Source of the DNA: Vicinamibacterales bacterium
GTDB lineage: Bacteria > Acidobacteriota > Vicinamibacteria > Vicinamibacterales > UBA8438
NCBI GenBank assembly: GCA_965214865.1
Contig: CBDCCN010000002.1
Span: 210,026-274,025, forward strand
Direction: 5' to 3'
Length of the DNA: 64,000 nt
In this document: one piece after another, positions 6,802 through 42,192 of the stretch
Layout: each line of letters opens with the position of its first letter
Position numbering within the stretch: position 1 is the stretch's first letter
Program-made: the position numbers and the translations under genes
Notes under the pieces: model-generated
Database searches by the model: none
What the model was told of the DNA's origin: nothing
What the model saw: the letters and a program-made list of their open reading frames with translations, nothing else

Positions 6802-8907
6802 TCAGTGGCTGTATGCGGGCGCCGCGACGGCGGCCATTCGTTCCGGCGTGCGGTGCTCGCTGCGGTTGGGCGGTTGCGTTTCTGGCGCTTTCGGCGCCGA
6901 CCCGTGGTCGAGCAGGTCGCGGGGGATGTCGGCCAGGAAAGGCGACGGCGAGGTTAGCTGCTTGCGGTCCCCGGACCCGTAGATCGACGGCACCGTAATG
7001 TGCAGCTCCGTGCGTGCCCGGGTCATGCCGACGTAGGCGAGCCGCCGTTCTTCTTCGGTGGCTTTCGCCGTGTCGGCTGCGTCCTTGAGGGTCCGCTTGT
7101 GCGGCAGCCGCTCCTTGTCGAAGCCTGCGAGGATCACGGTGTCGAACTCGAGACCTTTCGCGCTGTGGAGCGTCGACAGGGTCACGTTGGTCTCGCGTTC
7201 TTCACCTTCGCGGCGTGCGCGGATCATCTGCTGGGTGTGCTGCAGGAACTTCTCCAGTACGGTCTCGCCGCCTGGTCCGCCGTTCCGGTCCCCGTCGTCG
7301 TTGCGCATGTTCGCTTCGAAGTTCGCCGCGTCGTTGGCCAGCTCGGACAGGTTCTCGAGACGTTCCTTGGCGTGCGGGTCGTTCGACTCCCTCAGGTGGT
7401 TCCGCAGTCCGCTGTCGTCGACGGCGAAGTCGACCAGCTTCTCGAGCGGCAGCCGCGCGGCGGCCTCCTGGAGCCGTGTCGCGAACGCGAGCCGCTGTTC
7501 GAGCGTTTCCTGCTTGCGCGGACTGAGCGTCTGTTGCGCCACGGCGGTCTCGGTCCGGTTCCAGTACGTTGCCCTGCCGCTCGCGGCGCCCGTGGCCGGC
7601 AGCTGCCGGATCGTGTCCCGGTCGGCCTTGTCGAGCGGCGTTTTCGGCCTGATGGTCAGGAACCGTTCCGCCGCCCCGTCGTTCGCGCGCGGGTCGGCTG
7701 CCACGTACAGGCAGCTGAGTGCGTCCTGGATCTCGGCCCGTTCGTAGAAGCTCGTCCCGCCGCTGATCCGGTACGGGATGCCGGCGCTGCGGAAGCCCGC
7801 TTCCATGGCGCGCGACTGGGCGTTCGTGCGGTACAGCACCGAGACGGTGCCGTTGTCGCGATCGATCCGCTCGCGGGCCGCCGTGACCGCGTACTGGGCT
7901 TCGGTGGTCGCGTCGCGGGTCCGGTGGACGCGGGGCCGTTCGCCTTGCGCGGCCGCCGTCTCCAGGCTTCGTTCGACCCGGTCGGTGTTGTTGTTGATCA
8001 GCGCGTTGGCGGCGGCGAGTATCGATCCGGTCGATCGGTACGTCATCTTGAGGTCGACCCGCTGCGCGCCCGCGAAGTCGTGCTCGAAGTTCAGGATGTT
8101 GTTCAGCTCCGCGCCCCGCCAGCCGTAGATCGCTTGGTCGGGGTCGCCGACGGCGAACACGTTCCCGCTGTCGCGGGTCAGCTGGTGGACCAGCACGTAC
8201 TGGGGCAGGTTCGTGTCCTGGTATTCGTCCACGAGCACGTGAGCGAGGCTGCGGCTGTGCCGCTCACGGACGTCCGGGTGCTCGTGGAACAGTTCGACGG
8301 TCTTCAGCAGCATGTCGTCGAAGTCGACGGCGCCGTTCGCGGCCAGCTTCGCCTGGTAGCTGGTGGCGAGCATTGCCGTCCTCTTGCCCTCGACGCTGTA
8401 GCTGGATGGTTCGCTACTCGGCTGCATGTGGTTCTTCGCGTGGCTGATTTCCTTCAGCACCGCTCGCGGCGGGAGCGCCCGCGGGTTGACGTCGTTCTCG
8501 ATCATCGTCTCGGCCATTAGGCGCGTCTGGTCCCTGCCGGTGACGATCGAGAAGTCGCGCGGGACGCCGACCCGTTCGCCGTCGCGGCGCAGGATCCGTC
8601 CGCACAGGCTGTGGAACGTGCTGATCTGGACTGCTTCGGCGTCGATCGGGCCGAGGATCCCCCCTACCCTTTCCTCCATCTCCTTGGCGGCCTTGCGGGT
8701 GAATGTGACCGCGGCGACTGCGCCGGCCGGCACGCCGCGCGCCAGCACGAGGTAGGCGATCCTCGTGCAGATGACCTTCGTCTTTCCGGACCCCGGCCCG
8801 GCCAGCACCAGCACGGGCCCGTCGGGCGCCGTGACGGCCTCCCGCTGGCGGCCGTTCAGGTCCCCGAGCAGCGGCTCGATGTAGTCGGCGTGGGTCTGGT
8901 CGTCCAT
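6802..8907 (-). CDS. UvrD/Rep/PcrA-type superfamily 1 DNA helicase
   Basis: Walker A (LAGPGSGKTKV), VTFTRKAAKEM, VDEYQDTN, and the C-terminal motifs TLHSAKGLEFD and YVGMTRAR. ATG at 8907 has GGAG upstream; an alternative ATG lies at 8943. Confidence 0.9.
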   Translation of the reverse strand: MDDQTHADYIEPLLGDLNGRQREAVTAPDGPVLVLAGPGSGKTKVICTRIAYLVLARGVPAGAVAAVTFTRKAAKEMEERVGGILGPIDAEAVQISTFHSLCGRILRRDGERVGVPRDFSIVTGRDQTRLMAETMIENDVNPRALPPRAVLKEISHAKNHMQPSSEPSSYSVEGKRTAMLATSYQAKLAANGAVDFDDMLLKTVELFHEHPDVRERHSRSLAHVLVDEYQDTNLPQYVLVHQLTRDSGNVFAVGDPDQAIYGWRGAELNNILNFEHDFAGAQRVDLKMTYRSTGSILAAANALINNNTDRVERSLETAAAQGERPRVHRTRDATTEAQYAVTAARERIDRDNGTVSVLYRTNAQSRAMEAGFRSAGIPYRISGGTSFYERAEIQDALSCLYVAADPRANDGAAERFLTIRPKTPLDKADRDTIRQLPATGAASGRATYWNRTETAVAQQTLSPRKQETLEQRLAFATRLQEAAARLPLEKLVDFAVDDSGLRNHLRESNDPHAKERLENLSELANDAANFEANMRNDDGDRNGGPGGETVLEKFLQHTQQMIRARREGEERETNVTLSTLHSAKGLEFDTVILAGFDKERLPHKRTLKDAADTAKATEEERRLAYVGMTRARTELHITVPSIYGSGDRKQLTSPSPFLADIPRDLLDHGSAPKAPETQPPNRSEHRTPERMAAVAAPAYSH

Positions 8908-8971
8908 CGCTTGATCCGCTCCGCGGTTTCCCGAACGGTTCACCGGCCCGGTCCTTTCGCGGTCCGCCGGT

Positions 8972-9613
8972 CTACCGGCTGTGCTGCGGTGCGCCCCGTT
9001 CGCGCTCCAGCGCGGCCGCGTGCCCGAGCGCGGGCGTCGGCGCCACCGGCGGCGGCGGGAAGTCGGCCCCGCCGCCGCGTGCGATGGTCGGCATGCTGTT
9101 CGGCCGGTCCATCACGTCGGTCCGCGCGAAGTCCTGCGGTCCGTAGCTGGACTTCTGGAACACCGTGGTCACGGATGCGCGTCCCGGCGACTCCGGGTGT
9201 CTGGGGTCCCGTTTGGCGGCCTCGCGGGGCGGCAGCGCCGCCGTGCGCGTCTCCGGGCCGGTTGCGTCGGCCGGCCGTGTCCCGCCGGCGTGCCGGCTGA
9301 TCGCGGCGAGCTGCATTTCGCGCCGGTGCGCTTCGAGCGCGCTCCGCAGGTTGTCGCCGGTCAGTCCGTCGCCGGCCCGCGTCTGGCCGGGGGCGTCGCG
9401 GGTGTGCATCTCGTTGCTGGACGCGATGCGGTCGAAGTGCGCGTCGATCCCGTGGCCGGCGTCGGCCGCGGCGGTCCCCCGGGCCGCGCGCGCGCGGATG
9501 TTCGCGACCGTTGTCCCGACGGCTTCGCGGACGTGCGGGCGGCGCGCGTCGGTCAGCGACTGCTCGGTCGGTTCCAGCGTCTCCCGTCGGTCGTCGTGTC
9601 GATCGGCTGCCAT
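8972..9613 (-). CDS. Hypothetical protein (low-complexity, charged)
   Basis: ATG at 9613 sits 4 nt after GGAGGG. It lies upstream of the helicase on the same strand. Confidence 0.5.
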   Translation of the reverse strand: MAADRHDDRRETLEPTEQSLTDARRPHVREAVGTTVANIRARAARGTAAADAGHGIDAHFDRIASSNEMHTRDAPGQTRAGDGLTGDNLRSALEAHRREMQLAAISRHAGGTRPADATGPETRTAALPPREAAKRDPRHPESPGRASVTTVFQKSSYGPQDFARTDVMDRPNSMPTIARGGGADFPPPPVAPTPALGHAAALERERGAPQHSR

Positions 9614-14916: not shown

Positions 14917-15387
14917 TTACCGTTCGGGTGGCGTTGGCGGCTTGATGTCTCTGTTCTTGGTGGCGAGCGCCCCGAACAGGTACTCGCCTACGTCGTCGGG
15001 AACGTCGCGGCGGTGCTCCCAGAGGAGGTCGCCGGTCGCCGCGTCGAGCGCCTGGATGACGTCGTTCGGGTTCGGCATGTACATGACGCCGCCGTAGGCG
15101 AGCGGGGTGCCCGACTGGAAGCCCTCGGTGAGCCCCCGCGTCCAGACCATGCGCAGTTCGCCCACGTTGTCCGTGTCGATCTGATCCAGCGGGCTGTAGC
15201 CCCAGCCGTCGAGGGTGCGGCGCCACGTCAGCCAGTCGCCGTCGGCCGGCTGCTGGAGCATGGCGTCGGTGACCGGCGTGAAGTCGTCGTCGGACTGCGC
15301 GCCGACCGGGGACGCGCCCGACGTCAGCGGCACGACGGCGAGAACGGCGAGGGCTGCGCACCGCGGCGCGGGAGGCGAGGTATGCAT
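14917..15387 (-). pseudogene. N-terminal fragment (about 148 aa) of a PQQ-dependent dehydrogenase (quinoprotein)
   Basis: It aligns residue-for-residue with the N-terminus of the 29383 gene ([58 protein letters not shown]). Similarity stops at ..ATKNRD, around nt 14950. The ORF then runs 8 codons into unrelated sequence and stops. Confidence 0.8.
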
Positions 15388-29382: not shown

Positions 29383-30672
29383 ATGCAGACGCCTGCCGAT
29401 CGTTCCCGTCGAGGACTCCTGGTTGCCGCCCTGCTCCCGGCCTGCGCCGCGGCCCCAGCGGTACTGCACGCGCAGAGCGAGTCGGAGTTCGCGCCGGTCA
29501 CCGACGCGATGCTCCGGGCGCCGTCGCCGGACGACTGGCCGATGTGGCGCCGCACCCTGGACGGCTGGGGTTACAGCCCCCTCGACCGGATCGACCGCGG
29601 CAACGTGGGCGACCTGCGCCTCGTCTGGTCCCGCGCCCTGCGCGCCGGGGGCCGGCAGCAGGGCGCCCCGCTGGTCTACGACGGCGTCCTGTACATGCCG
29701 AATCCGAGCGACGTCATCCAGGCCATCGACGCGGCCACCGGGGACCTGCTGTGGGAGTACCAGCGGCCGCTGCCCGACGACGCGTGCGAGCGCATCATGC
29801 CCGGCGTGTGCACGACGAACCGGAACCTCGCCATCTACGACGATCTGATCATCGACACCAGCGTCGACGAGTTCGTGTTCGCCCTCGACGCGAAGACCGG
29901 CGAGCTGGTCTGGGAGACGCAGGTGCTCGACTACCGGACCCATCCCGCGAACCAGAGCACCGGGCCGATCATCGCCGACGGCAAGGTCGTCTCCGGGCGA
30001 AGCTGCATGCCCGCGGCCGGACCGGACGCCTGCGTCGTCACCGCGCACGATGCGCGGACGGGCCAGGAACTGTGGCGGCGCCGCACCATCCCGCGGCCCG
30101 GCGAGCCGGGCGACGAGACGTGGGGAGGCCTGCCGGACGCAGAGCGCCGGCACGTCGGGACGTGGATGGCGCCGAGCTTCGATCCCGAGCTGAACCTCCT
30201 CTACATCGGCACGTCGGTGACCTCGCCGGCCCCGAAGTTCATGGTGGGGGGCGCCGACAACCGGCACCTGTACCACAACTCCACCCTCGCCCTCGACGCC
30301 GACACCGGCGAAATCGTCTGGTACTACCAGCACCTGAACGACCACTGGGATCTCGACCATCCCTTCGAACGCCTGCTCGTCGATACGGTGGTGCGGCCGG
30401 ACCCGGCGGCGGTGCGCTGGATCAATCCGCGGCTGCAGCCGGGCGAAGAGCGCCGGGTGATGACCGGCATCCCGGGCAAGACCGGCGTCGTCTACACCCT
30501 CGACCGCGCGACGGGAGAGTTCCTGTGGGCGACGCCCACCGTGGCGCAGAACGTCATCAGCAGCATCGACGGCGCGACCGGCGCGGTCTCCGAGAACCCG
30601 GAGCTGGTCTTCGGCGGCTTCGGGCAGGAGGTCCTCACCTGCCCCACCGCCATGGGCGGCAAGGACTGGGAG
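29383..30672 (+). pseudogene. PQQ-dependent dehydrogenase, 5' portion (about 430 codons) interrupted by an inserted element
   Basis: ATG at 29383 follows GGAGG, with a signal peptide and quinoprotein propeller sequence up to ..CPTAMGGKDWE. The next 21 codons (SVDSSTDNPMYPVFIEKTAI*) are element-derived. Confidence 0.85.
30663..30672. repeat. Left copy of the 10-bp direct repeat GGACTGGGAG (candidate att core)
   Basis: An identical 10-mer occurs at 40944..40953. Joining the two copies restores one in-frame PQQ dehydrogenase. Confidence 0.7.
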
Positions 30673-30750
30673 TCCGTCGACAGCTCGACCGACAACCCAA
30701 TGTATCCCGTATTCATTGAGAAAACGGCGATCTGAACGGGTCCGAAAAGG

Positions 30751-30799
30751 CCGGAAAGCGGCTGGCAGAACCGGAAACGGCTGGCAGTGCGGCTGGCAG
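30751..30799. repeat. Left subterminal cluster of 3 direct CGGCTGGCAG repeats (two as CCGGAAA(G)CGGCTGGCAG)
   Basis: Copies at 30759..30768, 30778..30787 and 30790..30799, which is 87 to 127 bp inside the left junction. Confidence 0.8.
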
Positions 30800-30822
30800 T
30801 CGACCGGGTTTTGACGAGAGCT

Positions 30823-31410
30823 TCATGCGTCACTCCGGGCGGCGACTTCAAGCGTCTTCGCGTATCCGAACGCGCCGAGTGCGAGTCTCCAGAGGTCGAT
30901 GTTCTCGGTAAGGTCGCCCCGCGTTCCGCTCGCCCGGGTTTCCAGATGGTACCGCGTGCGCTCGAATGTGCACCGGTGATGATGGACGATCGCCTTCAAG
31001 CCGCCGGCTCCCGTCGGGTGCATCCCGTGGTCGAGGCGTGTTCCCCTCGTTCGCTCACTGAGCCGTTGTACGGCCGCAGCGATTCCCTGTTGGTCCGCCG
31101 GGCCGAGGTCGTTCCAAAGGTCTTCGAGATCGTGCGTCTTGAAGCACTCGCCGTTCGGACTGGCTCTGATGGCGATGGCCTTCATGCTCTGTTCGGCCGA
31201 GAGGGCGAGCACGGCGGCGGCGGTCCAGGTGATCGCGTTGCGCCATTCCCGTTCGTTCATGAGCGGCTGGCCGGTTACTTTCGCGAACAGGGTGTTGTTC
31301 GCCGCCATCTCGTCGCGGTTTTGCCAGACCGTTTGAGAAGCACCTGCGAGAGTACGCTCCGCCATGCGGAGCCAGTCGAGCCAATTCTGTTGGAGGAGTC
31401 TCTGCGCCAT
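30823..31410 (-). CDS. HEPN-domain-like protein
   Basis: ATG at 31410. The segment ..SAEQSMKAIAI...FKTHDLEDLWNDL.. and the later ..FERTRYH.. resemble the classical HEPN pattern (E..LKA....KTHDL..L ... aRYp). No adjacent nucleotidyltransferase partner was seen. Confidence 0.5.
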   Translation of the reverse strand: MAQRLLQQNWLDWLRMAERTLAGASQTVWQNRDEMAANNTLFAKVTGQPLMNEREWRNAITWTAAAVLALSAEQSMKAIAIRASPNGECFKTHDLEDLWNDLGPADQQGIAAAVQRLSERTRGTRLDHGMHPTGAGGLKAIVHHHRCTFERTRYHLETRASGTRGDLTENIDLWRLALGAFGYAKTLEVAARSDA

Positions 31411-31451
31411 CGTCCCTGTTGGGTTGGCGACATCGTACTGCCGAGCGCGAC

Positions 31452-32083
31452 CTACGGCGCGGCCACTTCCACCAACTCGCCGTGGCGCACCGCGAAGCTG
31501 CGGGTGACCGGCACAGTGGGGGCGTCGGCGAAGGGCGCGTCGACGGCCCGGTCGAGCAGGCGAACCGTGACAATCGCCCCATCGATCTCCACAGAGCGTA
31601 CGTGAACGCGGTCGCCGAGCAGCACGCTGCCAGCGTGATGCGGCCGGCCCTCGCGGTCGCGTGGAGAACACGCCGCTCCCGCCAGGGTGAGTGACCAGCA
31701 CGGCCGCAATGTCCGCACTGCCGTTTCTGTCGAGGTCGCCGGTGGCGACCAGCTCCAGCCTCACCGTGAGGATGCTGGCGGGAACCCCCGGCGACCGGCT
31801 CCCTGAACTCGCCGTCCCGCAGGGTGACGTGGCCGGCATCGCGGAACCCGGTGGCGTACGTCGCGTCGCGCGCGGCGCCGGCATCAAGGCCCGCGGGTCC
31901 GCCCATCGCACAGCCCCCGAGCGCCAAGAGCACGACTCCGCCGGCCAGCTTGCGGATGTTCCGACCATCCTGGTGCGGGACTCGCTCGCCGCACGAGCCA
32001 GCCTCAAGCACGATCCAGAGCACGATGGCGACGATACCACGCTCCCCGGCTGACCCTTCGAGACTGGACCGCACGCACCGCAA
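31452..32083 (-). pseudogene. Decayed lipoprotein gene spread over three frames
   Basis: Lipobox piece (LAGGVVLLALGGC..ATYATGFRDAGHVTLRDGEFREP) in one frame. Next comes ASILTVRLELVATGDLDRNGSADIAAVLVTHPGGSGVF in a second frame. The third frame gives DREGRPHHAGSVLLGDRVHVRSVEIDGAIVTVRLLDR... The apparent shifts are near 31785 and 31665. Confidence 0.4.
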
Positions 32084-32569
32084 GGGAGGGAGATCCGCGC
32101 CAGAGAATCAAGAGCGAACATCGTGCCGGCCGGCGAACCATGAGAGCAGATCGGACACGAAGATGCCGTGAGAGCGTGTAAATTGACCCCCTTCGATGAT
32201 TACAGCGAACTTACAGCCGAAATTACACGCATCCTCTCGAAAAACCCCGGAATCATTGACCAAACCGAACACCAACAAACCAACCTCGGAACACATAAAG
32301 GGTCGGGGAAAAAGAGGGAGCGACCCACCGCAAAACTGGCGTTTTGCGGTCCCGGCCGATGTTCCTGCGTCACACCCGCCGGGCCGGGTCGCTCCCCAAC
32401 GAAGGGGTCCCTCCGGGAAGGGTTGCCACGCTCGCGACCGGCTGCCACCGACTGGCCTCGCGCCAGTCTGGTGATGCTCCGGTCCCGGCGCAACGCAGGT
32501 GCGGCGGCGTTGTCGGTTGACGGTCCCCATTCGGAACGACGCCCTTGCGATATACACTTCCACGCCATC

Positions 32570-33797
32570 ATGACGGATCAGGTTTCGAGCCTCAACGAGA
32601 CGCTCGTGTCCCTGCGAGCCGACCGGGACGCGCGGCGCTTCGACGGAACGCAGTTCGAGGACGCCGTGCTTCGGCACGCCGCAGGCATCCCGAGTTGGGA
32701 GATCGCCGAGTGCTGGCGCTACCTGGAGTGGCCGGAGCGTACGGCGGTGGGCGTCCCCCTGCCGTCGCACGACGCCGGCATCGACCTCGTGGCCGTCAAG
32801 CGTGACGGTTCCCGCGTGGCGATCCAGTGCAAGGCGCGGAGCGGTGACGGATCGGTGACGACGAAGCAGGTGCAGCAGCTTGCCGGCGCTGCGCCGGCGT
32901 CGGTGTTCGCCGAGCGCTGGATGGTGGCGGAAGCCCGCCGGAGCGCGGCGACGACGGACGCCGCCGACGTCGCCGACGTGACGTTCATCGACTTCGAGGC
33001 GGCGCTGGCCGAGGCGCGGGACAGTGCGCGGGAGCACTCGGCGACCGAACCCGACCCGCGGACGGCCATGCAGGACGAGGCCGTGGCGGCGTGCGTGCGG
33101 GCGCTCCGCGCCGGGCTGCCGGAACACCGGGGCCGCTGGTGCGGCCACGACCCGCCGGGGCTGGATGCCGCGCGACGCGGCGCGTGCGACGCTCGTGCTG
33201 CCGTGCGGGACCGGCAAGACCCGCGTGTCGATGCGGATCCTGTCGGCGTTGTCGGAGCCGGGCGACCTCGGCGTGGTGCTCGTGCCGAGCATCGCGCTGA
33301 TCGCCCAGGTGCGGCGGGAGTACCTGTCGCACCTCGGCCTTCCGGTGCGGGCGCTTGCCGTGTGCAGCGACGAGACGGCGGGCCATGTCGATGCCGAGCG
33401 GGATCCGGATCTGGCGGCGGACCCGACGCGCGACACTGGACAGGTCCGCGCCGCCGACATCGGCTGCCGGGTCGCCCAGAACGCCGAGGCGGTGGCGGAG
33501 TGGCTGCGCGCTGGCCTGGACTCGACCGACCTTCGCATCATCTTCTCGACCTACCAGTCGGCGCACCACACGGCGGACGCGCTGCGGTCGGAGCGCCAGT
33601 TCGCGCAAGTCCTGATCCTCGACGAGGCTCACCGGACGGCGCAGTTGCGGCCGGCGAAGAGCCGGCGGCAGGACGAGCAGGGTACACGGCTCGCCTTCGG
33701 CTTCGCGAGACGAACCACTGTTGCGGGCCGTGTGCCGCATCCACGGGGGCGCTGTGGAAGTGCCCGGTCTGGGGACGCCCGGTCAACGTCGCGCTGA
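32570..33797 (+). pseudogene. Mrr-type restriction endonuclease domain fused to a DEAD/DEAH helicase; frameshifted and 3'-truncated
   Basis: The N-terminus has DAGIDLVAVKRDGSRVAIQCKARSG (PD-(D/E)xK, Mrr-like). After a frame change near 33120..33170 the helicase motifs I (LPCGTGKT), Ia (LVPSIAL) and II (LILDEAHRTA) appear. No later helicase motifs are present. Confidence 0.65.
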
Positions 33798-34002
33798 ATC
33801 TGAAGGTCGGCGAGGCGGGCGCCCCCAGCCCGTTGGAAATCTCGCGGGCGATCGTCGCCGATCACGCCTGCACCGGGGCCGCGAGATTCCCACACTCCCA
33901 CAGCGGTCGTCGTCGATGACTGACACGGAAACGACGTTCATCGGAAGATGTGTCATGATGTGAGCCCGCAAGCATTAACCCGTCCACGGGATCGGGGCAA
34001 CC

Positions 34003-34645
34003 TCAGTGAGTCTTGCGCACCAGCGCTTCGTGCACGCGTTGGGGCAACTGCGAGCGGGAGAATTCGGCGAAGGCGCGCGAGAAGACAGACTCGCTCGGCA
34101 CCTGGCTCCGCCGCTCCCAGCCGCAAAGGCGCCGTAGCGCCACGTCGGTGTCCAAGCGGTCCAGCAGCACGCGCGTGGTCGGCATGTCGTAGACCGCCTT
34201 GGCCACGAATGCCCGCGCCAGCGCGGCGCGGTCGCTCGGCGGACGCCCCGGCGCCCCAAACTGCGGGGGAATCCACTGCTCGATGCGGATGACCTCCAAG
34301 GTCTGCACCAACTGTTGCTGCTTGGCGGTCAGTGGCCCCAACTCCTGCTCCAGATTGGGGAACAGCGCCTCCTGAATCGACTGCCAGTAGGGGCGAAGGA
34401 ATCTCGCAGACGGTTCATGCTTCGTTCGACCTCCTGTGCAAATGTCCTTCTGGAACCATATCAAGCAGCAACGCGATGAGCGAGGCGCCAAGAGCCGTGC
34501 GCAACGCCGAGTTGCAGCTCGCATACACCCGTTGTGCTACCCTTGGCCGACTGCTCCACGGCTTCCTGCCCTGTCGGGCAAGAAAACCACCCCATCGCCG
34601 AGGTTCTGCAAGAGCCTCCAGAGTTTAGTAGGGTATGCGCCGGAA
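34003..34645 (-). mobile_element. Truncated, diverged copy of the IS found at 37400..38964 (left end plus about 135 N-terminal transposase codons)
   Basis: It encodes ..PYWQSIQEALFPNLEQELGPLTAKQQQLVQTLEVIRIEQWIPPQFGAPGRPPSDR..VRKTH, about 90% identical to the intact transposase N-terminus. The terminal sequence GTTCTGCAAGAGCCTCCAGAGTTTAG matches the IS inverted repeat. A 1-nt deletion follows the ATG, and the copy ends abruptly at 34003. Confidence 0.75.
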
Positions 34646-34685
34646 CCGTGGAGCCACGGTCCCGGCGAAGGTCCCGGCGAAGAGG

Positions 34686-35171
34686 TCAGCCGAACAGCAC
34701 GCCGAGCACGTCCGCTTCGCGCTCGGCATCGAGCAGGCCGATCCAGGCGTGCGTTACCATCCCGTCGCCGTCGACCAGCAGCAGGGTCGGCGTTCCCTGG
34801 ACAGGCAGCGTGTCACGTTGAACGAACATGACTGAATCAGGAGTGATGCCTTCGGACGCCAAGTAGCCCTCGATGCCGGCGTCGAAAGGCGGGGCGACAA
34901 CGACGATCTCAACGTCTTGGCTGTCGCGCTCGAGCAAGCGCCGGTAGAACGGCATCGACTGCTGGCAGAACCGGCAGTCGGACCGTAGCACCATCAGCAG
35001 GGTGCGGCCATCGAGGTCGAGAACGTCGCCTGCTCGAAACTCGACAAGCTCCGACTCGGACATGCCGGCGACGCCTGATGGCCGGAATTGCGATCCCACC
35101 AAGACCAGAATGGCTACGGCGACCGCGATCGTCGCGCCGTCTGCAAGCTGGCTGAGCCGCGCGCCTGTCAC
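34686..35171 (-). CDS. Membrane-anchored thioredoxin-fold (TlpA/ResA-like) thiol:disulfide oxidoreductase
   Basis: N-terminal TM segment and a CRFC (CxxC) motif in the context LLMVLRSDCRFCQ. The GTG start overlaps the upstream stop (GTGA). Confidence 0.7.
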   Translation of the reverse strand: MTGARLSQLADGATIAVAVAILVLVGSQFRPSGVAGMSESELVEFRAGDVLDLDGRTLLMVLRSDCRFCQQSMPFYRRLLERDSQDVEIVVVAPPFDAGIEGYLASEGITPDSVMFVQRDTLPVQGTPTLLLVDGDGMVTHAWIGLLDAEREADVLGVLFG

Positions 35172-35881
35172 CGCTCTACCTCCGGCAGTTCGCGGACGGC
35201 GTAGCCGGACGGAATCCCGAACGTGTCCGCCGGCAGGGAGGCCCGTTCCGCGGATCGCAGCCGCTCGCCCGTCATGCTGCCGTCGGGCAAGTGCATCTCC
35301 CGGACAACGACCTCATCGGACTCGTCATCGATCCAGAGAACGGTCAAGGTGCCGTCCTGATGCTCCGTTGTCCACGCCCGCAAGACCATCGGGCCGTACG
35401 TCCTAAAGCCGCCCGAAGGTGACATTTCACCGCCATGATCATGCGCGTCGTCGAGACTGTGGTCGTGACCGTGTTCGGTCGTTGGCGCGGGCAGGAAGGA
35501 GACAATCGAAGGAACCGGCGCTTGCGGTTCCCAGTATGCACCCCGCGGGCCACGGATGGCGTTCTCCAGATCGTGGCTGATCGTGATCCGCTCGAACCGG
35601 GTTCTGATCTCCGTGGACTCGAAGGTCTCGCCTGATGGCGGGAACGGTCGACGTACATCCCGGCGCCACAGCGACACGTGCTTCGGCGTCAGGTACATTG
35701 TGCCCGTTCCAAGGCTGATCGTCTCCCCCTCGCCCGACTCGAATACCCGCTCGAACGTCACGACGACACCGGAGACCCCGCCGTTCTGCTGCTCGGCCGC
35801 CATGACGGCGCACGCGAGAAGCACAGCCAGCGACGTTGCGCCAACGACGATCCGTCGATACGACCTCAAGTTGTTGGTCAT
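35168..35881 (-). CDS. Hypothetical secreted protein with His-rich patch (EHGHDHSLDDAHDHGG)
   Basis: Signal peptide (VVGATSLAVLLACAVMAAEQ). It is coupled to the thioredoxin-like gene by a 4-nt overlap. Confidence 0.55.
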   Translation of the reverse strand: MTNNLRSYRRIVVGATSLAVLLACAVMAAEQQNGGVSGVVVTFERVFESGEGETISLGTGTMYLTPKHVSLWRRDVRRPFPPSGETFESTEIRTRFERITISHDLENAIRGPRGAYWEPQAPVPSIVSFLPAPTTEHGHDHSLDDAHDHGGEMSPSGGFRTYGPMVLRAWTTEHQDGTLTVLWIDDESDEVVVREMHLPDGSMTGERLRSAERASLPADTFGIPSGYAVRELPEVER

Positions 35882-35938
35882 GCCCTTATCCTCCTCGTCC
35901 CGTTCCAGAAGGCCCTCGTTCCCGAGAGTTCTCGACGA

Positions 35939-36241
35939 TTAGCTGTACAGGCAGTTCTGGTTGTGGAAATGCTCGTGCCGGCCGCACCCGTCACCGTTCG
36001 TCGTGAAAACACATCGTTCGATATGGTATTCCTTACCCCACCAGACGAAGCATTCGCCGTCGGGGCCGGACTCTTGCGCGCATCTCCGAAAGCCGTCGGG
36101 CCTGCACGTGATGCTCTCAGTGAAACACGTGCAGGAGCTACTGTAGGGGTCGATCCGGCTGTCCGCCGAAAGCATGTCGGTCGAGACCAGCAGCAGCAAT
36201 ACCGCGGAGAGCACAACGAGCCGCAGAATAGATCGCCGCAT
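35939..36241 (-). CDS. Small secreted Cys-rich protein (8 Cys in about 75 mature residues)
   Basis: Signal peptide MRRSILRLVVLSAVLLLLVS. Cysteines occur at SSSCTCF, ITCRP, RRCAQ, GECFV, ERCVF, DGCGR and QNCLY. GC is locally lower. Confidence 0.55.
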   Translation of the reverse strand: MRRSILRLVVLSAVLLLLVSTDMLSADSRIDPYSSSCTCFTESITCRPDGFRRCAQESGPDGECFVWWGKEYHIERCVFTTNGDGCGRHEHFHNQNCLYS

Positions 36242-36340
36242 CAGGAACCTCCCACGAAGTGCCGGGCCATCAACTGGCCCGACGGACGGACGTGGTACAC
36301 GATAGCCGCTCCGGAGGCTTTCGCGGAACTGGGGGTTTTC

Positions 36341-37156
36341 CTAGGCCGCTAGCGCGGCTTCATCGAGCGTCGCAATGGCCGCCCGGACCGACGCGATCTC
36401 CTCGTCACGACGCACCTGCTCTGCGACACGCGCCGCCGCGGCCTCGCAGTGCGCGTCGACGACAGCAGGTGTGGATACCCAGCCGTCGAGCACCTGTCCC
36501 GCGGCCGCGAGACGGTCGGCGTTCCGGCCCACGACGACGACTTCGACGGCGCGGCCCGCCGCCAGCAGCGCCGCCCACAACCCGGCATGCTGCCCGCCCC
36601 AGGTCCGCAGGGCGCTCTGCGTCTCCTCCTCCGGCTGGACCAACACGAACGTCGCCCGCTCGGCGTCGAGCGCCAGCGGCAGCCTGTGGACGAAAGGCCG
36701 GCGGCGGGAGCCGTCCGCGCCGGCGTACACCCGGCCCGGCCACACGTCCCGCGGCACCCCCGCGGCCGTGAACGCCGCCACCTTCTCGCCGTCGGCCGGC
36801 AGCCACGGCGCGTCGAGGTGGTCGATCACGTAGTCGAGCGCCAGCAGCCGGCGCAACGCCACGACCGGAGTCGCGTCGCGCCGAGGGCGAAGGTGCTCCA
36901 CGCCCAACGCCCGGTAGAGTTCGCGGTCCACGATCCGGCACAGCAGCCCCGGATCGTTCCGGGAATCCTCCGGCATCGCTGCCGGGCCGCATCCGGAATC
37001 GTGCGGAATCTCCGTCGAAGTTCTGCGGAACACCCTCCGGAGCAGCGCGGAGGTCGCGCCGCGCAACGTCGATGGCGCGAGCTGGTCCCCGCCGTCCTCC
37101 CGCCGAGCCACCGACCGCGCGGCCACATCCACGGGACGGTCCTCGAAATCGGTCAT
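36341..37156 (-). CDS. Hypothetical protein
   Basis: ATG at 37156 sits 7 nt after GGAGGAG. Composition is globular. No motif was recognised. Confidence 0.5.
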   Translation of the reverse strand: MTDFEDRPVDVAARSVARREDGGDQLAPSTLRGATSALLRRVFRRTSTEIPHDSGCGPAAMPEDSRNDPGLLCRIVDRELYRALGVEHLRPRRDATPVVALRRLLALDYVIDHLDAPWLPADGEKVAAFTAAGVPRDVWPGRVYAGADGSRRRPFVHRLPLALDAERATFVLVQPEEETQSALRTWGGQHAGLWAALLAAGRAVEVVVVGRNADRLAAAGQVLDGWVSTPAVVDAHCEAAAARVAEQVRRDEEIASVRAAIATLDEAALAA

Positions 37157-37399
37157 CGCCCGGCTCCTCCGAATGGCGCGCCCAACCAGACGCACACCGA
37201 GCGCCTCCGCCGACCGTGCCGACTCGACAGGCATGGAGGCAGTTTACCTGACTGTCAATGGCCGCACAACGGCCATTCTCTCGTGTGCTGCCCAGCCCCC
37301 GAGGTCGCGTCGATGGCGCGCTGTTCAGCAACGTTTATTGCCGTATGTCCGGGCATCTGGCGGTCCAGTCCGGTCCCACGGCGTGCGCTCGTGGCTGAC

Positions 37400-38964
37400 T
37401 TTGAAATATGAGCTTCTTGCAAAACCCTGCGGAGAGGCGATTTTCGGTCTGGACAAGCGCAGGCAGGATGCCGGTGGGCAGTTGCGTTCGACGAGAGGGT
37501 AACATGGCAGCAACTCGGCGTTGAGCGTGTCGCTCACCGCTTTGGTATTCGCGGGAGGTCAACTGCAGCATGCCCCGTATGCGAGATTCCTTCGCCCCCT
37601 ACTGGCAGTCGATTCAGAATGCGCTGTTTCCCGATCTGGAGCAGGAGCTGGGACCACTGACCGCCAAGCAGCAGCAGTTGGTGCAGACCTTGGAGGTCCT
37701 CCGCATCGAGCAGTGGATTCCCCCGCAGTTTGGGGCGCCGGGGCGTCCGCCGAGCGACCGCACTGCGCTGGCGCGGGCATTCGTGGCCAAGGCGGTCTAC
37801 GACATGCCGACCACGCGGATGCTGCTGGACCGCTTGGACACCGACGTGGCGCTCCGGCGTCTATGCGGCTGGGAGCGGCGGAGCCAGGCGCCGAGCGAGT
37901 CGGTCTTCTCGCGCGCCTTCGCCGAATTCGCCCGCTCGCAGTTGCCCCAACGGGTGCACGAGGCGTTGGTCCGCAAGACCCACGGCGACCAGTTGGTGGG
38001 CCATCTCTCCCGCGACTCGACGGCCATCGAGGTCCGCGAGAAGCCTGCCGTCAAGGAGAAGGCGCCGACGCCTCCCAAGCGCAAGCGGGGACGGCCGAAG
38101 AAGGGCGAAGAACGGCCGAAGCGGCGCACACGGCTCGAACGGCAGTCCACCATGACCCTGCCCGAGATGCTCGACGACCTGCCGACCGACTGCGATGTCG
38201 GCACGAAGAAGAACAGCAAGGGATACCGCGACACCTGGGTCGGCTACAAGCTGCACATCGACGTGGCCGACGGCCAGGTCCCCATCAGTTGCCTGTTGAC
38301 CTCGGCCTCGACGCATGACAGCCAAGCCGCCATTCCCCTGGCGACGATGGCGGCCGAACGGGCGACCAACTGCCATGACCTGATGGATTCGGCCTACGAT
38401 GCCGAAGCGGTCCACGAACACAGCCGCTCACTCGGCCACGTCCCGTTGATTGACATCAACCCCCGCCGCGACAAGGCGCTGGCCGAGGAGCTGAAAGCTG
38501 AAGCCCGGCGCCTGCGGTGCATCGGCTTCCAGCTTCCTGAGCAGGTCCGGTACAACGAACGCACCGCGGGTGAGCGCGTCAATGGCCGACTGAAGGACGA
38601 GTTCGGTGGCCGCCATGTACGCGTCCGTGGCGCCTCGAAGGTGATGTGCCATTGCATGTTCGGCATCCTCGCCCTCACTGCCGACCAGCTCCTGCGCCTT
38701 GTGACATAACCGACGTGTCGGCGGACCGGCCGCATCCCATCGCCATGGCCGGACCGCCATCAGCGCATCTACCCGTGTCCCTCAACGCCCGTCGAGAACA
38801 CCGTCGAAGCCGGCTGTCTCAGCCCTCTCCGCTTGCCCACACGTGCTGTAGAACGAGATCGGAGGCGACAAACCCAAGGGCGATGGGACTCCAAGCAGGA
38901 AGGACCGCCATCAGCCCATCGAGCCGAATCCCCCACGAGTTCTGCAAGTGGCTCAAATAAGAAA
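37400..38964 (+). mobile_element. Insertion sequence of about 1.57 kb (IS4/IS5-like, DDE transposase) with imperfect terminal inverted repeats
   Basis: IRL is TTTGAAATATGAGCTTCTTGCAAAAC (37400..). IRR is GTTCTGCAAGTGGCTCAAATAAGAAA (..38964). About 18 of 25 positions match. No clear target-site duplication was found. Confidence 0.7.
37570..38709 (+). CDS. DDE transposase (IS4/IS5 superfamily)
   Basis: 379 aa, with ..HLSRDSTAIEV.., ..GYKLHIDV.., ..LMDSAYDA.. and ..NERTAGERVNGRLKDEFG.., a typical DDE_Tnp_1 layout. Confidence 0.85.
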   Translation: MPRMRDSFAPYWQSIQNALFPDLEQELGPLTAKQQQLVQTLEVLRIEQWIPPQFGAPGRPPSDRTALARAFVAKAVYDMPTTRMLLDRLDTDVALRRLCGWERRSQAPSESVFSRAFAEFARSQLPQRVHEALVRKTHGDQLVGHLSRDSTAIEVREKPAVKEKAPTPPKRKRGRPKKGEERPKRRTRLERQSTMTLPEMLDDLPTDCDVGTKKNSKGYRDTWVGYKLHIDVADGQVPISCLLTSASTHDSQAAIPLATMAAERATNCHDLMDSAYDAEAVHEHSRSLGHVPLIDINPRRDKALAEELKAEARRLRCIGFQLPEQVRYNERTAGERVNGRLKDEFGGRHVRVRGASKVMCHCMFGILALTADQLLRLVT

Positions 38965-38985
38965 ATTATTATTGTTCGCGTGCAG

Positions 38986-39678
38986 ATGGACTTCATCGGC
39001 GAGCGCCTCCGCGAGACCCGCAAGCTGCGCGGTCTCACCCAGTTGCAGCTCGCGCACCGCACCGGCATCGCGCGGCACCTGATCCCGATGGTCGAGCACG
39101 GCAAGTCGGGCCTGTCGCCGGCCAACCTGTCGGCCGCCGCCCAGGCACTGCGCGTCTCGGTCGACTACCTGTTCGGGCTCACCGACGACCCGACGCCCGC
39201 CGCCCAGCTCGCCTCGCGGGTCCGGGCGCTCGAAGACGACAGCGCCCGCGCCGGGGCGCTCGACGAGGGCGACTTCGTCGGCGTCTGGGAGGTGGCCACC
39301 GCCGCGGGCGGCGGGGCCGAGGTCGACCGCGAGCGGGTCATCGGCCGCATCAAGTTCCGGCGGGCGTGGCTCACGAGCCATGGCCTCGCCGCCGGCGACT
39401 GCCGCATCATCCAGGTGCTCGGGGAGTCGATGGAGCCCACCCTGGTGGACGGCTGCTCGATCCTCGTCAACCACGCCAGCCGGCGGCGGCGCGAAGGCGG
39501 CATCTACGTGGTCCGAACCGCCGACGGCTTGATCGTCAAGCGCGCCGGCAAGGAAGCGGACGGGAGCTGGCTGCTCGTCAGCGACCACCCCGACAAGCGG
39601 GCGTGGCCGACGCTGCCCTGGCCCGACGACGCGGCCGTGCTCGGCGAGGTCCGCTGGACCGCGCGGACGTTTCTGTGA
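38986..39678 (+). CDS. CI/LexA-like repressor (XRE HTH plus S24 peptidase domain)
   Basis: HTH (LRGLTQLQLAHRTGIARHLIPMVEHG). S24 Ser/Lys dyad context (VLGESMEPTL ... GLIVKRAG). The ATG lies only about 22 bp from the IS right end. Confidence 0.85.
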   Translation: MDFIGERLRETRKLRGLTQLQLAHRTGIARHLIPMVEHGKSGLSPANLSAAAQALRVSVDYLFGLTDDPTPAAQLASRVRALEDDSARAGALDEGDFVGVWEVATAAGGGAEVDRERVIGRIKFRRAWLTSHGLAAGDCRIIQVLGESMEPTLVDGCSILVNHASRRRREGGIYVVRTADGLIVKRAGKEADGSWLLVSDHPDKRAWPTLPWPDDAAVLGEVRWTARTFL

Positions 39679-39690
39679 GGGAGAGAGTCT

Positions 39691-40881
39691 ATGGAACCGA
39701 TCGTCAGTGAGATCGAGGGCGTCCGACCCGATGCGGCGGAGTGGGCGATGGCCGTGCCGGTGGCGAAGCCGCGGCAAGCCGGGGAGCGGGGAGCATCGAA
39801 GGCCGGCGCCGGCAAGCCAGCCGCACGCCGCCGCGTGCGGGTCGCCGAGGGCATCTACCGGGACCGGCACGGACTGGCCGCCACGGTCAAGGTCAACGGC
39901 ATCCAGCGCGAGGTCCGTTTCCCGCCCGGCACGCCGCTCAGGACCATTCGGGCGAAGCGTGACGAGCTGCGGGCCAGCCTGCGGACACTCCCGGCAGGCG
40001 GCCGGCACACCCTCAGCCACGACGCCGGGCGGTACCTCGATCAGGTGGAGAGCACCCTGATCAGCTTCGGCGACCGCCGCCGCGAACTGCTGGCGTGGCT
40101 GCCGCGGTTCGGGCACCTGCGGACGACGGCGCTCCCGGCGCACCTGCCGATGCTCAACGCCCAGCTTCACGAGTGGCGCCGGACGCTCGCCGCCTCGACC
40201 TGCAACCACCGCCGCCACGCCCTGACGAACCTCGTCCGCGTGCTCTACGGCCGCCGCGCCTCGTTCGACCTGCTCGACCTCGTCCGCTTCGCCCCGCCGC
40301 CCCCGAAGCCCCGCTGGGTCGACCGCCGCCACATCGCTGCGGTTCTGGCGGAGATCCCGGCCGGATCCGTTACCGGCGTGCGGCTGGAGCTGATGCACTG
40401 GACCGGGATGCGGCCGTCGCAGATGGGCAGACTCCGCGCGGATGACTTCCGGCTCGACGAGCCGATCCCCTACGTGGCGGTTCCGCGAGGGAAGGGCGGC
40501 CGGATCGCCGCCGTCCCGCTGGTGCCGGAGGGCGTCGCCGCCGCGCGCGCCTTCCTCGACGCCGAAGCCTTCGGGCCGTGGCCCCGCAGCAGCGTCAACC
40601 GGGCGCTCGCCCGAGCAGCGCGCAAGGCCGGCCGGCCGGTGTTCACCACCTACCAGATCCGGCACTCGTTCGCAGCCGGCCTGCGCCGGGCCGGGACGGA
40701 CGTGGCGGACATCCAGGACCTCTATGGACACACCCGGCCCGAGACGACCATGATCTATGCGCCACCGGAGCTGGCGAAGCATCTGGCGGCGCTCGAACGG
40801 CTGCGCAGCGACGACGCGGAGGGCGGGCCGGAACCGGCTGGCCAGCCCGTTCTGGCTGGCACTAACGGCTGGCAGGGTTAA
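39691..40881 (+). CDS. Tyrosine recombinase/phage-type integrase
   Basis: Catalytic signature elements HWTGMRPSQM (Arg), IRHSFAAGLRRAG (HxxR) and GHTRPETTMIYA (Tyr). It starts 12 nt after the repressor stop and lies next to the right junction. Confidence 0.9.
   Translation: MEPIVSEIEGVRPDAAEWAMAVPVAKPRQAGERGASKAGAGKPAARRRVRVAEGIYRDRHGLAATVKVNGIQREVRFPPGTPLRTIRAKRDELRASLRTLPAGGRHTLSHDAGRYLDQVESTLISFGDRRRELLAWLPRFGHLRTTALPAHLPMLNAQLHEWRRTLAASTCNHRRHALTNLVRVLYGRRASFDLLDLVRFAPPPPKPRWVDRRHIAAVLAEIPAGSVTGVRLELMHWTGMRPSQMGRLRADDFRLDEPIPYVAVPRGKGGRIAAVPLVPEGVAAARAFLDAEAFGPWPRSSVNRALARAARKAGRPVFTTYQIRHSFAAGLRRAGTDVADIQDLYGHTRPETTMIYAPPELAKHLAALERLRSDDAEGGPEPAGQPVLAGTNGWQG
40828..40875. repeat. Right subterminal cluster of GGCTGGC(A) repeats (CCGGAACCGGCTGGCCAG, CTGGCTGGCAC, ACGGCTGGCAG), same orientation as the left cluster
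   Basis: It lies 69 to 116 bp inside the right junction, within the 3' end of the integrase ORF. Confidence 0.7.
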
Positions 40882-40943
40882 CGCGTGACGCACATAATGG
40901 ATTTGAATAAGCTGGTTACGGCGTTCGTCGTTAGCGTGATACC

Positions 40944-40953
40944 GGACTGGGAG
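40944..40953. repeat. Right copy of the 10-bp direct repeat GGACTGGGAG (candidate att core)
   Basis: Identical to 30663..30672. Confidence 0.7.
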
Positions 40954-41436
40954 GCGGGGGCCTACAGCCCGCGCACCAACATGATGTACATGCCGCTGCG
41001 CAACGCCTGCGCGCGGATGGCGCCGCTCGACGATGGGGGCCGGTCGCTCTACAGCCTCAGCATGCGCAACGAGCTGGCGCCCGGCACCGACCGGCTCGGC
41101 GCGGTGTGGGCGATCTCCGCGGAGACCGGCGTGACGGCGTGGACCTGGGAGCAGCGCGCCGCCACGATGTCGCTGGCGGTGACGGCCGGGGGCCTCGTCT
41201 TCGTCGGCGACGTCAACGGCCGGTTCCGCGCCCTCGACGACGAGACCGGCGCGGTGCTCTGGGAGGTCAACCTCGGGTCGCCGGTCAGCGGCTTCCCCGT
41301 GACCTATGCGGTCGACGGCCGGCAGTACGTCGTGGCGGGCACCGGCACGGGCGGCAACGCCTCGCGCTGGAGCGCGATGACCCCGGAGCTGCGGCCGAGC
41401 AGCGGCAACAACCTCTTCGTCTTCGCGTTGCCTTAG
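40954..41436 (+). pseudogene. PQQ-dependent dehydrogenase, 3' portion (about 160 codons)
   Basis: ..AGAYSPRTNMMYMPL...GGLVFVGDVNGRFRALDDETGAVLWEVNLGSPVSGFPVTYAVDGRQYVVAGTG.. are the typical last propeller blades. The track ORF start at 40885 is element sequence. Confidence 0.85.
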
Positions 41437-41773: not shown

Positions 41774-42039
41774 CGTGAGGTCTCCAATCCTGAATCATGA
41801 CGGCCGCCGCCAGCAGCCGGTTGATGCGGTCAACCGTCTGTAGCGCCGCCTCCGTTTGCCCGTCCCGAACGAAACGCGACAGATGCGGCATGGCATCGAT
41901 TGGTAGTCGTTCATGATTTGCGACACGGCTGTCCGGGTCAGAACGTGTGGCGGAATCCAACTCAATCCCGTATAGAATGGGTGAAATGGATGTTGTAGCC
42001 AAGACGGCCCCGACTCCCCGCAGAACCAAGCGCCGAGGT

Positions 42040-42192
42040 CGCCACCCCGACAAGGCCCTCTCGTTCGCCTTCGTCCGTTCCGCCCCGCCCGGTCGGCACG
42101 CAGACGGCAACGGCTTGTACCTGTTCGTCTAGCCGACCGGCACCCGAAGCCGGGTCCAGCGGCTCGTCATCCGCGGCCGGCGCCGCCGGTAG
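42040..42192 (+). pseudogene. Remnant of a P4-type integrase N-terminal (arm-binding, DUF4102-like) domain with an in-frame TAG
   Basis: ..ALSFAFVRSAPPGRHADGNGLYLFV*PTGTRSRVQRLVIRGRRRR* matches the signature 'l.Da.vraa.p....l.DggGLyL.V.ptG.ksW..ry...Gkrr'. No catalytic domain follows. Confidence 0.55.

Follow-up and report, generated by a model that had tools for sequence, protein, structure and literature searches.

The 64-kb stretch analyzed here (the window, whose positions serve as coordinates throughout) comes from a soil acidobacterium of the Vicinamibacterales (Acidobacteriota), an abundant and almost uncultured soil lineage. It contains a gene for a pyrroloquinoline quinone (PQQ) alcohol dehydrogenase, whose two parts are separated by an island of 10,281 bp (30673-40953). 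The same 10-mer, GGACTGGGAG, stands at both junctions, and a repressor gene and a tyrosine integrase gene lie just inside the right one. The features that define the gene and the two ends of the island are given below (att denotes an attachment site; L numbers are our labels for loci in other genomes and contigs).

29383-30672, + strand: 5' part of the PQQ alcohol dehydrogenase gene, with a Tat-like signal peptide and 430 codons (PF01011; alignments with PDB 4cvb and homologues)
30663-30672, + strand: left copy of the core GGACTGGGAG (attL); the same core closes the PQQ N-terminal part in 12 metagenome contigs
30673-30800, + strand: left arm, beginning TCCGTCGACAG..CCCGTATTCATTG, with three CGGCTGGCAG repeats at 30759, 30778 and 30790
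38986-39678, + strand: repressor of the CI/LexA/SetR type, 230 aa, with helix-turn-helix (HTH) and S24 domains; start set by homology with L002 and L004
39691-40881, + strand: tyrosine integrase, 396 aa, 12 bp downstream of the repressor (Pfam PF00589, E 2.5e-17)
40826-40943, + strand: right arm, with GGCTGGCCAG, GGCTGGCAC and CGGCTGGCAG repeats, then a spacer of about 66 nt ending GATACC; conserved in 19 junctions
40944-40953, + strand: right copy of the core GGACTGGGAG (attR), invariant in 18 of the 19 junctions
40954-41436, + strand: 3' part of the PQQ alcohol dehydrogenase gene, 160 codons and a stop (alignments with 4cvb and homologues; tblastn)

The divided gene and the ends of the island

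Read from 29383, the frame encodes a PQQ dehydrogenase as far as ..MGGKDWE, continues into 20 unrelated codons of the island (SVDSSTDNPMYPVFIEKTAI) and stops at 30735. Downstream of 40953 the dehydrogenase is taken up again with AGAYSPRTNMMYMPL.. and runs to a stop at 41436, and neither half contains a stop or a frameshift. When 30673-40953 is removed in silico, so that 29383-30672 is joined to 40954-41436, a single open reading frame (ORF) of 590 aa results. It matches Pfam PF01011 with an E of 9e-63, and its residues 33-590 align with residues 11-569 of the PQQ alcohol dehydrogenase of PDB entry 4cvb (E 8e-135), free of any gap at the junction. Acidobacterial proteins of about 590 aa share 85-90% identity with the joined ORF over 94-100% of its length, and its two halves resemble the same homologues (85-87% identity for the N-terminal half, 89-92% for the C-terminal half). 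At the junction itself the motif GGKDWE|AGAYSPRTN (GGKDWEAGAYSPRTN) is near-invariant in an alignment of the 120 best homologues; the core provides the codons for (G)DWE inside the conserved GGKDWEAGAY (coding motif AAG GAC TGG GAG). Only the joined ORF has the full and colinear eight-bladed propeller of the PF01011 PQQ alcohol dehydrogenases, the last 160 residues being detached in the gene as it is present in the genome. Reduced to a 430-codon stump and a 160-codon tail, this copy of the dehydrogenase, lacking its last 160 residues, is therefore presumably inactive.

An earlier note on this DNA had held that the gene is cleanly split at ..MGGKDWE, that an identical 10-mer marks both junctions and that excision would regenerate an ORF of about 590 aa. 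All of this holds: the joined ORF is colinear and without indel relative to its homologues, and the 10-mer has no third copy on either strand of the window, its chance per position being about 2e-6 by our own estimate at the window's base composition. The alignment that the note called for, of the excised sequence to full-length PQQ alcohol dehydrogenases, gives one uninterrupted stretch, and the outcome that it named as contrary to its view, with halves matching different paralogues or non-contiguous parts, was not seen; nor was the other one, an identical interruption in related genomes but devoid of the repeat. Its placing of the integrase and the repressor just inside the right junction is borne out by Pfam; the start of the repressor is to be corrected from 38833, most likely to 38986. 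The lower GC content that it noticed in parts of the insert is also there (0.678, vs about 0.71 in the flanks, with troughs to 0.61).

The repressor matches HTH_19 (6e-10), HTH_3 (2e-9) and Peptidase_S24 (6e-12) in Pfam and the transcriptional repressors of PHROGs (E 3e-33). It keeps the Ser/Lys dyad of the self-cleaving repressors of the LexA/CI/SetR type (Ser148 in GESMEP, Lys185 in VKR), and several Ala-Gly pairs are candidate cleavage sites. The integrase belongs to the tyrosine recombinases (PF00589) and has their nucleophilic tyrosine: it keeps R241, K268, R324, H347 and Y356, none of which varies among 30 homologues, and Y321 takes the first His position. Its structural model matches XerA, XerH, lambda Int and Tn1549 Int with a probability of 1.00, and residues 49-98 are modeled as a four-stranded sheet and a helix (predicted local distance difference test, pLDDT, about 70-77).

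Exact copies of CGGCTGGCAG number four in the window, all on the + strand and all less than 190 bp from the island ends. The left-end copies lie 87-127 bp inside; the single right-end copy (40866) lies 69-78 bp inside, beside two degenerate copies (three GGCTGGC(A/C) copies in all). Arm repeats are thus present on both sides of the core, as at the sites of lambda-type (heterobivalent) integrases, and they are conserved in relatives, the left arm being homologous to the arms in L020, L042, L083 and L086-L099. Joining the right arm to the left arm gives a candidate for the attachment site of the element (attP), with the core region ACCGGAC-TGGGA-GTCCGT, a dyad around the core. The right-arm repeats (40835-40881) fall within the last 15 codons of the integrase gene (..PAGQPVLAGTNGWQG*), so that the C-terminus of the integrase and its presumed binding sites share sequence.

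Recurrence of the attachment site and the tRNA-linked sister clades

The integrase of the window has hundreds of homologues, often several per genome. By scanning one genome per species, we collected 79 related loci, nearly all of them in metagenome-assembled genomes (MAGs) of Vicinamibacterales. The same right junction was found at 18 further loci in 11 Vicinamibacterales genomes, with the arm repeats, a spacer of about 66 nt ending ..ACC, GGACTGGGAG (once AGACTGGGAG) and then GCCGGCGCCTACAGCCC. The PQQ C-terminal part begins exactly at AGAYSP in these junctions. Since it is 62-93% identical to that of the window, different paralogues and orthologues are occupied. Up to four attR junctions occur per genome, this highest number in a genome of 7.28 Mb. 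Two loci of that genome, L016:11211 and L017:11211, have identical right arms joined to two different PQQ paralogues; hence, one type of element recently occupied two sites in one genome.

The left junction recurs as well. In 12 metagenome contigs (5 of them distinct) the PQQ N-terminal part breaks off at residue 430 and is followed by the core and by a left arm homologous to that of the window, its repeats spaced likewise, and one more attL is provided by L083, a low-coverage contig that gave the single match to a 45-aa query made of the N-terminal end and the island-encoded tail. In L010, L020 and L042 we found right arm, core and left arm in succession, an attP-like layout that is expected for tandem or free elements; L020 has the three left-arm repeats at the spacing of the window. 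These recurrent attR and attL junctions show that both ends of the island are genuine element ends and that the core is a conserved attachment site. The insertion reading of the earlier note is thus upheld, and strengthened by the attR, attL and attP-like sites of other genomes. The 10-mer that it described as a direct repeat is indeed present, and is to be understood as a recombination core common to attP and the target site (attB), not as a transposon-style target duplication.

The closest island, L004, lies in a Vicinamibacterales MAG (CBDCCY010000004.1). The right module of this closest relative is 97-99% identical to that of the window, and L004 is a different locus because its PQQ fragment is only 91% identical. 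It also carries adjacent tyrosine recombinase genes resembling a recombinase-in-trio element (L004:3158-5301, - strand). More generally, the related islands are riddled with copies of IS21, IS110 and IS66 and a reverse transcriptase.

Sister integrases, 57-81% identical to that of the window, are found 30-300 bp upstream of a complete tRNA gene at 41 of 52 loci, and the nearest sister clade (76-81% identical) adjoins tRNA-Lys(UUU). The right arms of the PQQ clade and of the tRNA-Lys clade can be aligned without a gap, so that the arm repeats coincide and keep their spacing. The PQQ core, ACC|GGACTGGGAG, stands 66 nt past the last repeat, and ACC|TGACTTTTAA, which belongs to the tRNA-Lys anticodon stem-loop, stands 67 nt past it. 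This comparison of sequences supports, without proving it, a change of target in the integrase lineage, in which a coding look-alike took the place of a tRNA anticodon loop while the geometry of attP was preserved, and it suggests that the exchange region is the 7-nt CTGGGAG. A tRNA disguised in attP was also looked for and rejected: ARAGORN finds none with its default settings, and its relaxed matches do not span the core. There is no tRNA gene anywhere in the window.

With the lambda-type integrases that target tRNA anticodon loops, the present one thus shares aligned arm repeats, a matching core position and an attP core with a stem-loop-like dyad. The difference lies in the target, which is here a coding motif destroyed by the insertion, whereas theirs is regenerated. 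The earlier note had called insertion into a protein-coding gene unusual. For mobile elements in general it is not; within this integrase family it is exceptional, because the sister clades adjoin tRNA genes.

In Vicinamibacterales, the attachment site, the arms and the regulatory module of this element family are now defined to the base. A conserved cofactor-site motif of a many-copy enzyme family is a multi-copy landing pad, and this explains why several islands occur per genome. From it one can also predict which of the PQQ dehydrogenase genes of soil MAGs will be wrongly annotated as fragments. No description of the element family was found in the literature: the family, its target and the supported retargeting are new, while insertion into a coding gene and the mechanism, which is standard, were already known.

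Class of the element and rival readings

To class the element, we considered 91 ORFs sampled from the 10 kb upstream of 15 related integrases. They include P-loop proteins of VirB4/TraG type (6), VirB9/CagX (3), VirB2/TrbC (3) and VirB3, and also a RepB primase, a topoisomerase, an ArdC-like peptidase and many insertion sequences (ISs) and other recombinases. L002 has genes of MobC/NikA type, and L095 a type I restriction-modification system at its left end. The type IV secretion genes of the relatives make this a conjugative family, i.e., of integrative and conjugative elements (ICEs). The island of the window has the integration module of an ICE, with att sites at both ends. Between 30673 and 40953, Pfam, PHROGs, PADLOC and NCBIfam detect no conjugation machinery, nor is there a relaxase or mobilization protein as in integrative mobilizable elements. 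An island without transfer genes is therefore filed as derived from an ICE rather than as an ICE, and the window copy is a decayed remnant, which has kept its ends and its repressor-integrase operon and lost its transfer genes. We thus consider it very probable that the insert is the no longer self-transmissible remnant of a Vicinamibacterales ICE, integrated by a lambda-type integrase at the PQQ core. The earlier note's integrase-bearing insert is in this way refined to the remnant of a conjugative element, as opposed to an intact prophage or island. For the window, the practical message is an ordinary one, a dehydrogenase copy presumably inactivated by what a mobile element has left behind.

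Several points weigh against this view. No relaxase, secretion gene or recognizable excisionase is present in the island of the window, whose ICE ancestry is taken from its relatives, and its interior (30800-36341) has no homologue in other elements. For the genome loci that carry transfer genes, where the islands exceed the 10-kb flank, no left junction was recovered, so that these genes are assigned to the same element by their proximity alone. The arm-binding domain of the integrase, predicted from secondary structure, has no Pfam match even at E 5. Finally, the search for an empty site, also proposed in the earlier note, was only partly successful. The best intact homologues, the PQQ genes of L084 and L085, have contiguous halves with the core once. 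They match the window within the gene only, and because neither shares flanking synteny with it, we obtained no empty site with matching flanks at the strain level.

As we read the locus, the integrase recombined the attP of the element with the 10-bp core in the PQQ gene; this gave attL, in which the 5' part of the gene is followed by the core and the left arm, and attR, in which the right arm is followed by the core and the 3' part. In the mechanism that we propose, the integrase would bind the CGGCTGGCAG arm repeats, probably via its N-terminal beta-sheet domain, and also CGGAC and GTCCG, the inverted half-sites on either side of TGGGA in the reconstructed attP, the strands being exchanged inside the core. 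The repressor and the integrase would be expressed as one operon. Judging from the families involved, the SOS response would lead to cleavage of the repressor and to release of the divergent operon, and precise excision would be expected to restore the 590-aa ORF. In the window copy, an IS has split the repressor/integrase operon from its upstream region. This copy might be able to excise at present, its att sites and integrase being intact, whereas it has no recognizable excisionase and its operon is separated by the IS.

Such an organization recalls known systems. In ICEBs1 of Bacillus subtilis, an immR-immA-int operon lies beside the att site, with a divergent xis/conjugation operon, and the target is tRNA-Leu. 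The present family likewise has a co-oriented and nearly abutting repressor and integrase at one end with divergent genes beside them, and relatives with type IV secretion. On the other hand, it uses a single self-cleaving HTH and S24 protein in place of the repressor/protease pair, its target is the middle of a coding gene instead of tRNA-Leu, and the window copy is devoid of transfer genes. In SXT/R391 elements, SetR is a CI-like repressor cleaved during the SOS response, and integration takes place in prfC, which stays functional since the element supplies a replacement 5' end. A CI/LexA-type S24 repressor and a tyrosine integrase with its core inside a coding gene are common to both. Here, however, the left arm only adds 20 unrelated codons and leaves the enzyme without its last 160 residues, and the integrases have no close sequence relationship (no match in plasmids). 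Gene-intervening elements, or active lysogeny, are known from skin in sigK, SPbeta in spsM, gin in gerE and phi10403S in comK, for which timed excision was demonstrated (PMC5595907). As with these, the present element sits inside an ORF that precise site-specific excision would rebuild. Their excision is timed by development or infection, whereas here it is predicted in silico; moreover, the present family is conjugative and inserts into numerous paralogues of a single enzyme family.

The first of the other readings that we weighed is a defective prophage, i.e., a temperate phage whose structural genes disappeared after it had integrated here. Both the repressor and the integrase have matches among phage families (PHROG 4 and PHROG 1), and an integrase beside an att site with a divergent regulatory region is typical of lambdoid phages. 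These two genes are nonetheless the only PHROGs matches in the island. No capsid, terminase, tail or lysis gene was found in it or among the 91 ORFs of the 15 related islands, and no phage structural family is among the 25 most frequent of the 52 Pfam families matched by these ORFs, which instead match type IV secretion and plasmid-type families. The closest integrases in IMG/VR are only 42-44% identical, GenBank phages gave one weak match of 28%, and PLSDB none. We therefore hold a prophage origin to be improbable. Even less credence, practically none, is due to an old rearrangement or an assembly artefact in which the 10-bp repeat would be coincidental. That no syntenic empty site was recovered would fit it, but complete chromosomes from long reads and independent metagenomes have this core and these arms too, the arm repeats are confined to the two island ends, and the 10-mer has the very low chance per position given above (~2e-6).

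A third reading concerns function: the insert could be a regulated gene-intervening element that excises on a signal (e.g., DNA damage) and turns the dehydrogenase back on, its persistence being adaptive, comparable to skin in sigK or to the Listeria phage in comK. The perfect ORF of 590 aa restored by in-silico excision is what such a switch calls for. The gene halves have stayed free of stops and frameshifts although the interior has decayed, and the integrase, the repressor with its Ser/Lys dyad and both arms are intact. Yet no excisionase was found, the repressor/integrase operon has been cut off from its upstream region by the IS, and the loss of one dehydrogenase may be tolerated in genomes with many PQQ paralogues. 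Furthermore, the same junctions adjoin full conjugative modules, as ordinary parasitic insertion predicts. A switch at this locus is thus unlikely in our opinion. A wider version for the whole clade seems to us a long shot too: on DNA damage the repressor would be cleaved, the element would leave the PQQ paralogue that it occupies and so restore it, the set of paralogues would in this way be toggled, and recombination between occupied and empty cores could swap C-terminal modules between paralogues.

One gene has a bearing on such swaps. P0030 (L001:10001-11791, in the 7.28-Mb genome) encodes a full-length PQQ dehydrogenase that is 94% identical to the window gene before the core and 69% after it, with the switch in identity within residues 430-447; the gene is followed by part of a P4-like integrase gene and by a dnd cluster for DNA phosphorothioation. 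As far as this identity pattern goes, P0030 may be the product of core recombination between paralogues. The core is not, however, where chimeras of paralogues break in general: in P0050 and P0073 the break comes about 25 residues before it and in P0065 near residue 280, so that only P0030 is compatible with a break at the core.

Interior of the island and neighbouring traces

Between its left arm and its repressor, the remnant contains the following features:

30823-31410, - strand: 195-aa ORF, an uncertain gene call (frame plot)
32316-32421, no strand assigned: palindromic repeat of about 106 nt (GGGAGCGACCC...GGGTCGCTCCC), with copies in other Vicinamibacterales loci
32570-33797, + strand: restriction enzyme pseudogene in two reading frames (Pfam ResIII; PADLOC REase_MTase_IIG)
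34006-34518, - strand: IS fragment (DUF772), related to the full IS at 37409-38955, with which it forms a 388-nt inverted repeat, 94% identical
34686-36241, - strand: three small cargo ORFs (34686-35171, 35168-35881 and 35939-36241) with predicted signal or membrane segments
36341-37234, - strand: 297-aa relic of a conserved 545-aa element gene (blastn to L004, L003, L010 and L063)
37409-38955, + strand: IS of IS5/IS1182 type, 1547 bp, with a transposase at 37570-38709 (Pfam DDE_Tnp_1, DUF772)

Decay is visible in several of these. The restriction pseudogene corresponds to the N-terminal ~400 residues of a fused nuclease-helicase-methyltransferase of about 1600 aa; it has a frameshift near 33150 and is truncated, and its PADLOC match covers positions 3-124 and 185-335 of the 1646 of the REase_MTase_IIG profile. 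The 297-aa relic, which is divergent from the repressor, has a ~660-bp internal deletion and has lost its 3' end. For its intact 545-aa counterpart (L004, ORF 7421-9058), Pfam, PHROGs, NCBIfam and PDB sequences gave nothing informative. The full IS has a DDE transposase, terminal inverted repeats (TGAGC..CTTGCA.AAC) and a 4-bp AATA target duplication (37405-37408 and 38956-38959), all as expected of the IS5/IS1182 type; its NCBIfam scores for IS1182/IS5 are below the curated cut-offs. It lies 27 bp upstream of the repressor start, at a site that is uninterrupted in L004 and L010.

The 195-aa ORF has no match in Pfam, PHROGs, PADLOC or NCBIfam and no homologue in other elements. The cargo ORFs of 34686-36241 likewise have no homologue in other elements. 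The one at 34686-35171 is thioredoxin-like (weak matches to Thioredoxin_2/Redoxin), the other two have no recognizable family, and a TrbB-like match for the three-ORF stretch stays below the cut-off. Copies of the palindrome, 82-90% identical, occur in four unrelated Vicinamibacterales loci (L015, L047, L050 and L077), and the region around it (32255-32422) has a 75% match inside the L003 island. Rfam gives no match in or around the island, palindrome included. The palindrome could be a repeat resembling repetitive extragenic palindromes or miniature inverted-repeat transposable elements (REP/MITE-like), or a small RNA.

Two other traces in the window concern the same enzyme family. At 14917-15387 (- strand) lies a 156-aa PQQ dehydrogenase fragment with a signal peptide, which covers positions 1-88 only of PF01011; its identity to the split gene is 62%. 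The fragment adjoins a region of lower GC content at third codon positions, with a UvrD-type helicase and ORFs without family matches, and may be another scar of an insertion or a deletion. On the other side, 465 bp past the PQQ stop, 41903-42186 (+ strand) holds what is left of the 5' end of another integrase gene, P4-like, interrupted by a nonsense TAG and truncated. The same gene is found in L001:11853-12137, L002:11803-12092 and 7502-7786, L015:11753-12011 and L018:20571-20855; outside the window, its start falls about 100 bp past the stop of different PQQ paralogues in four loci, and a sequence mimicking the PQQ 3' end stands before an intact copy. The 3' end of this PQQ gene family would thus seem to serve a second integrase family, unrelated to the first.

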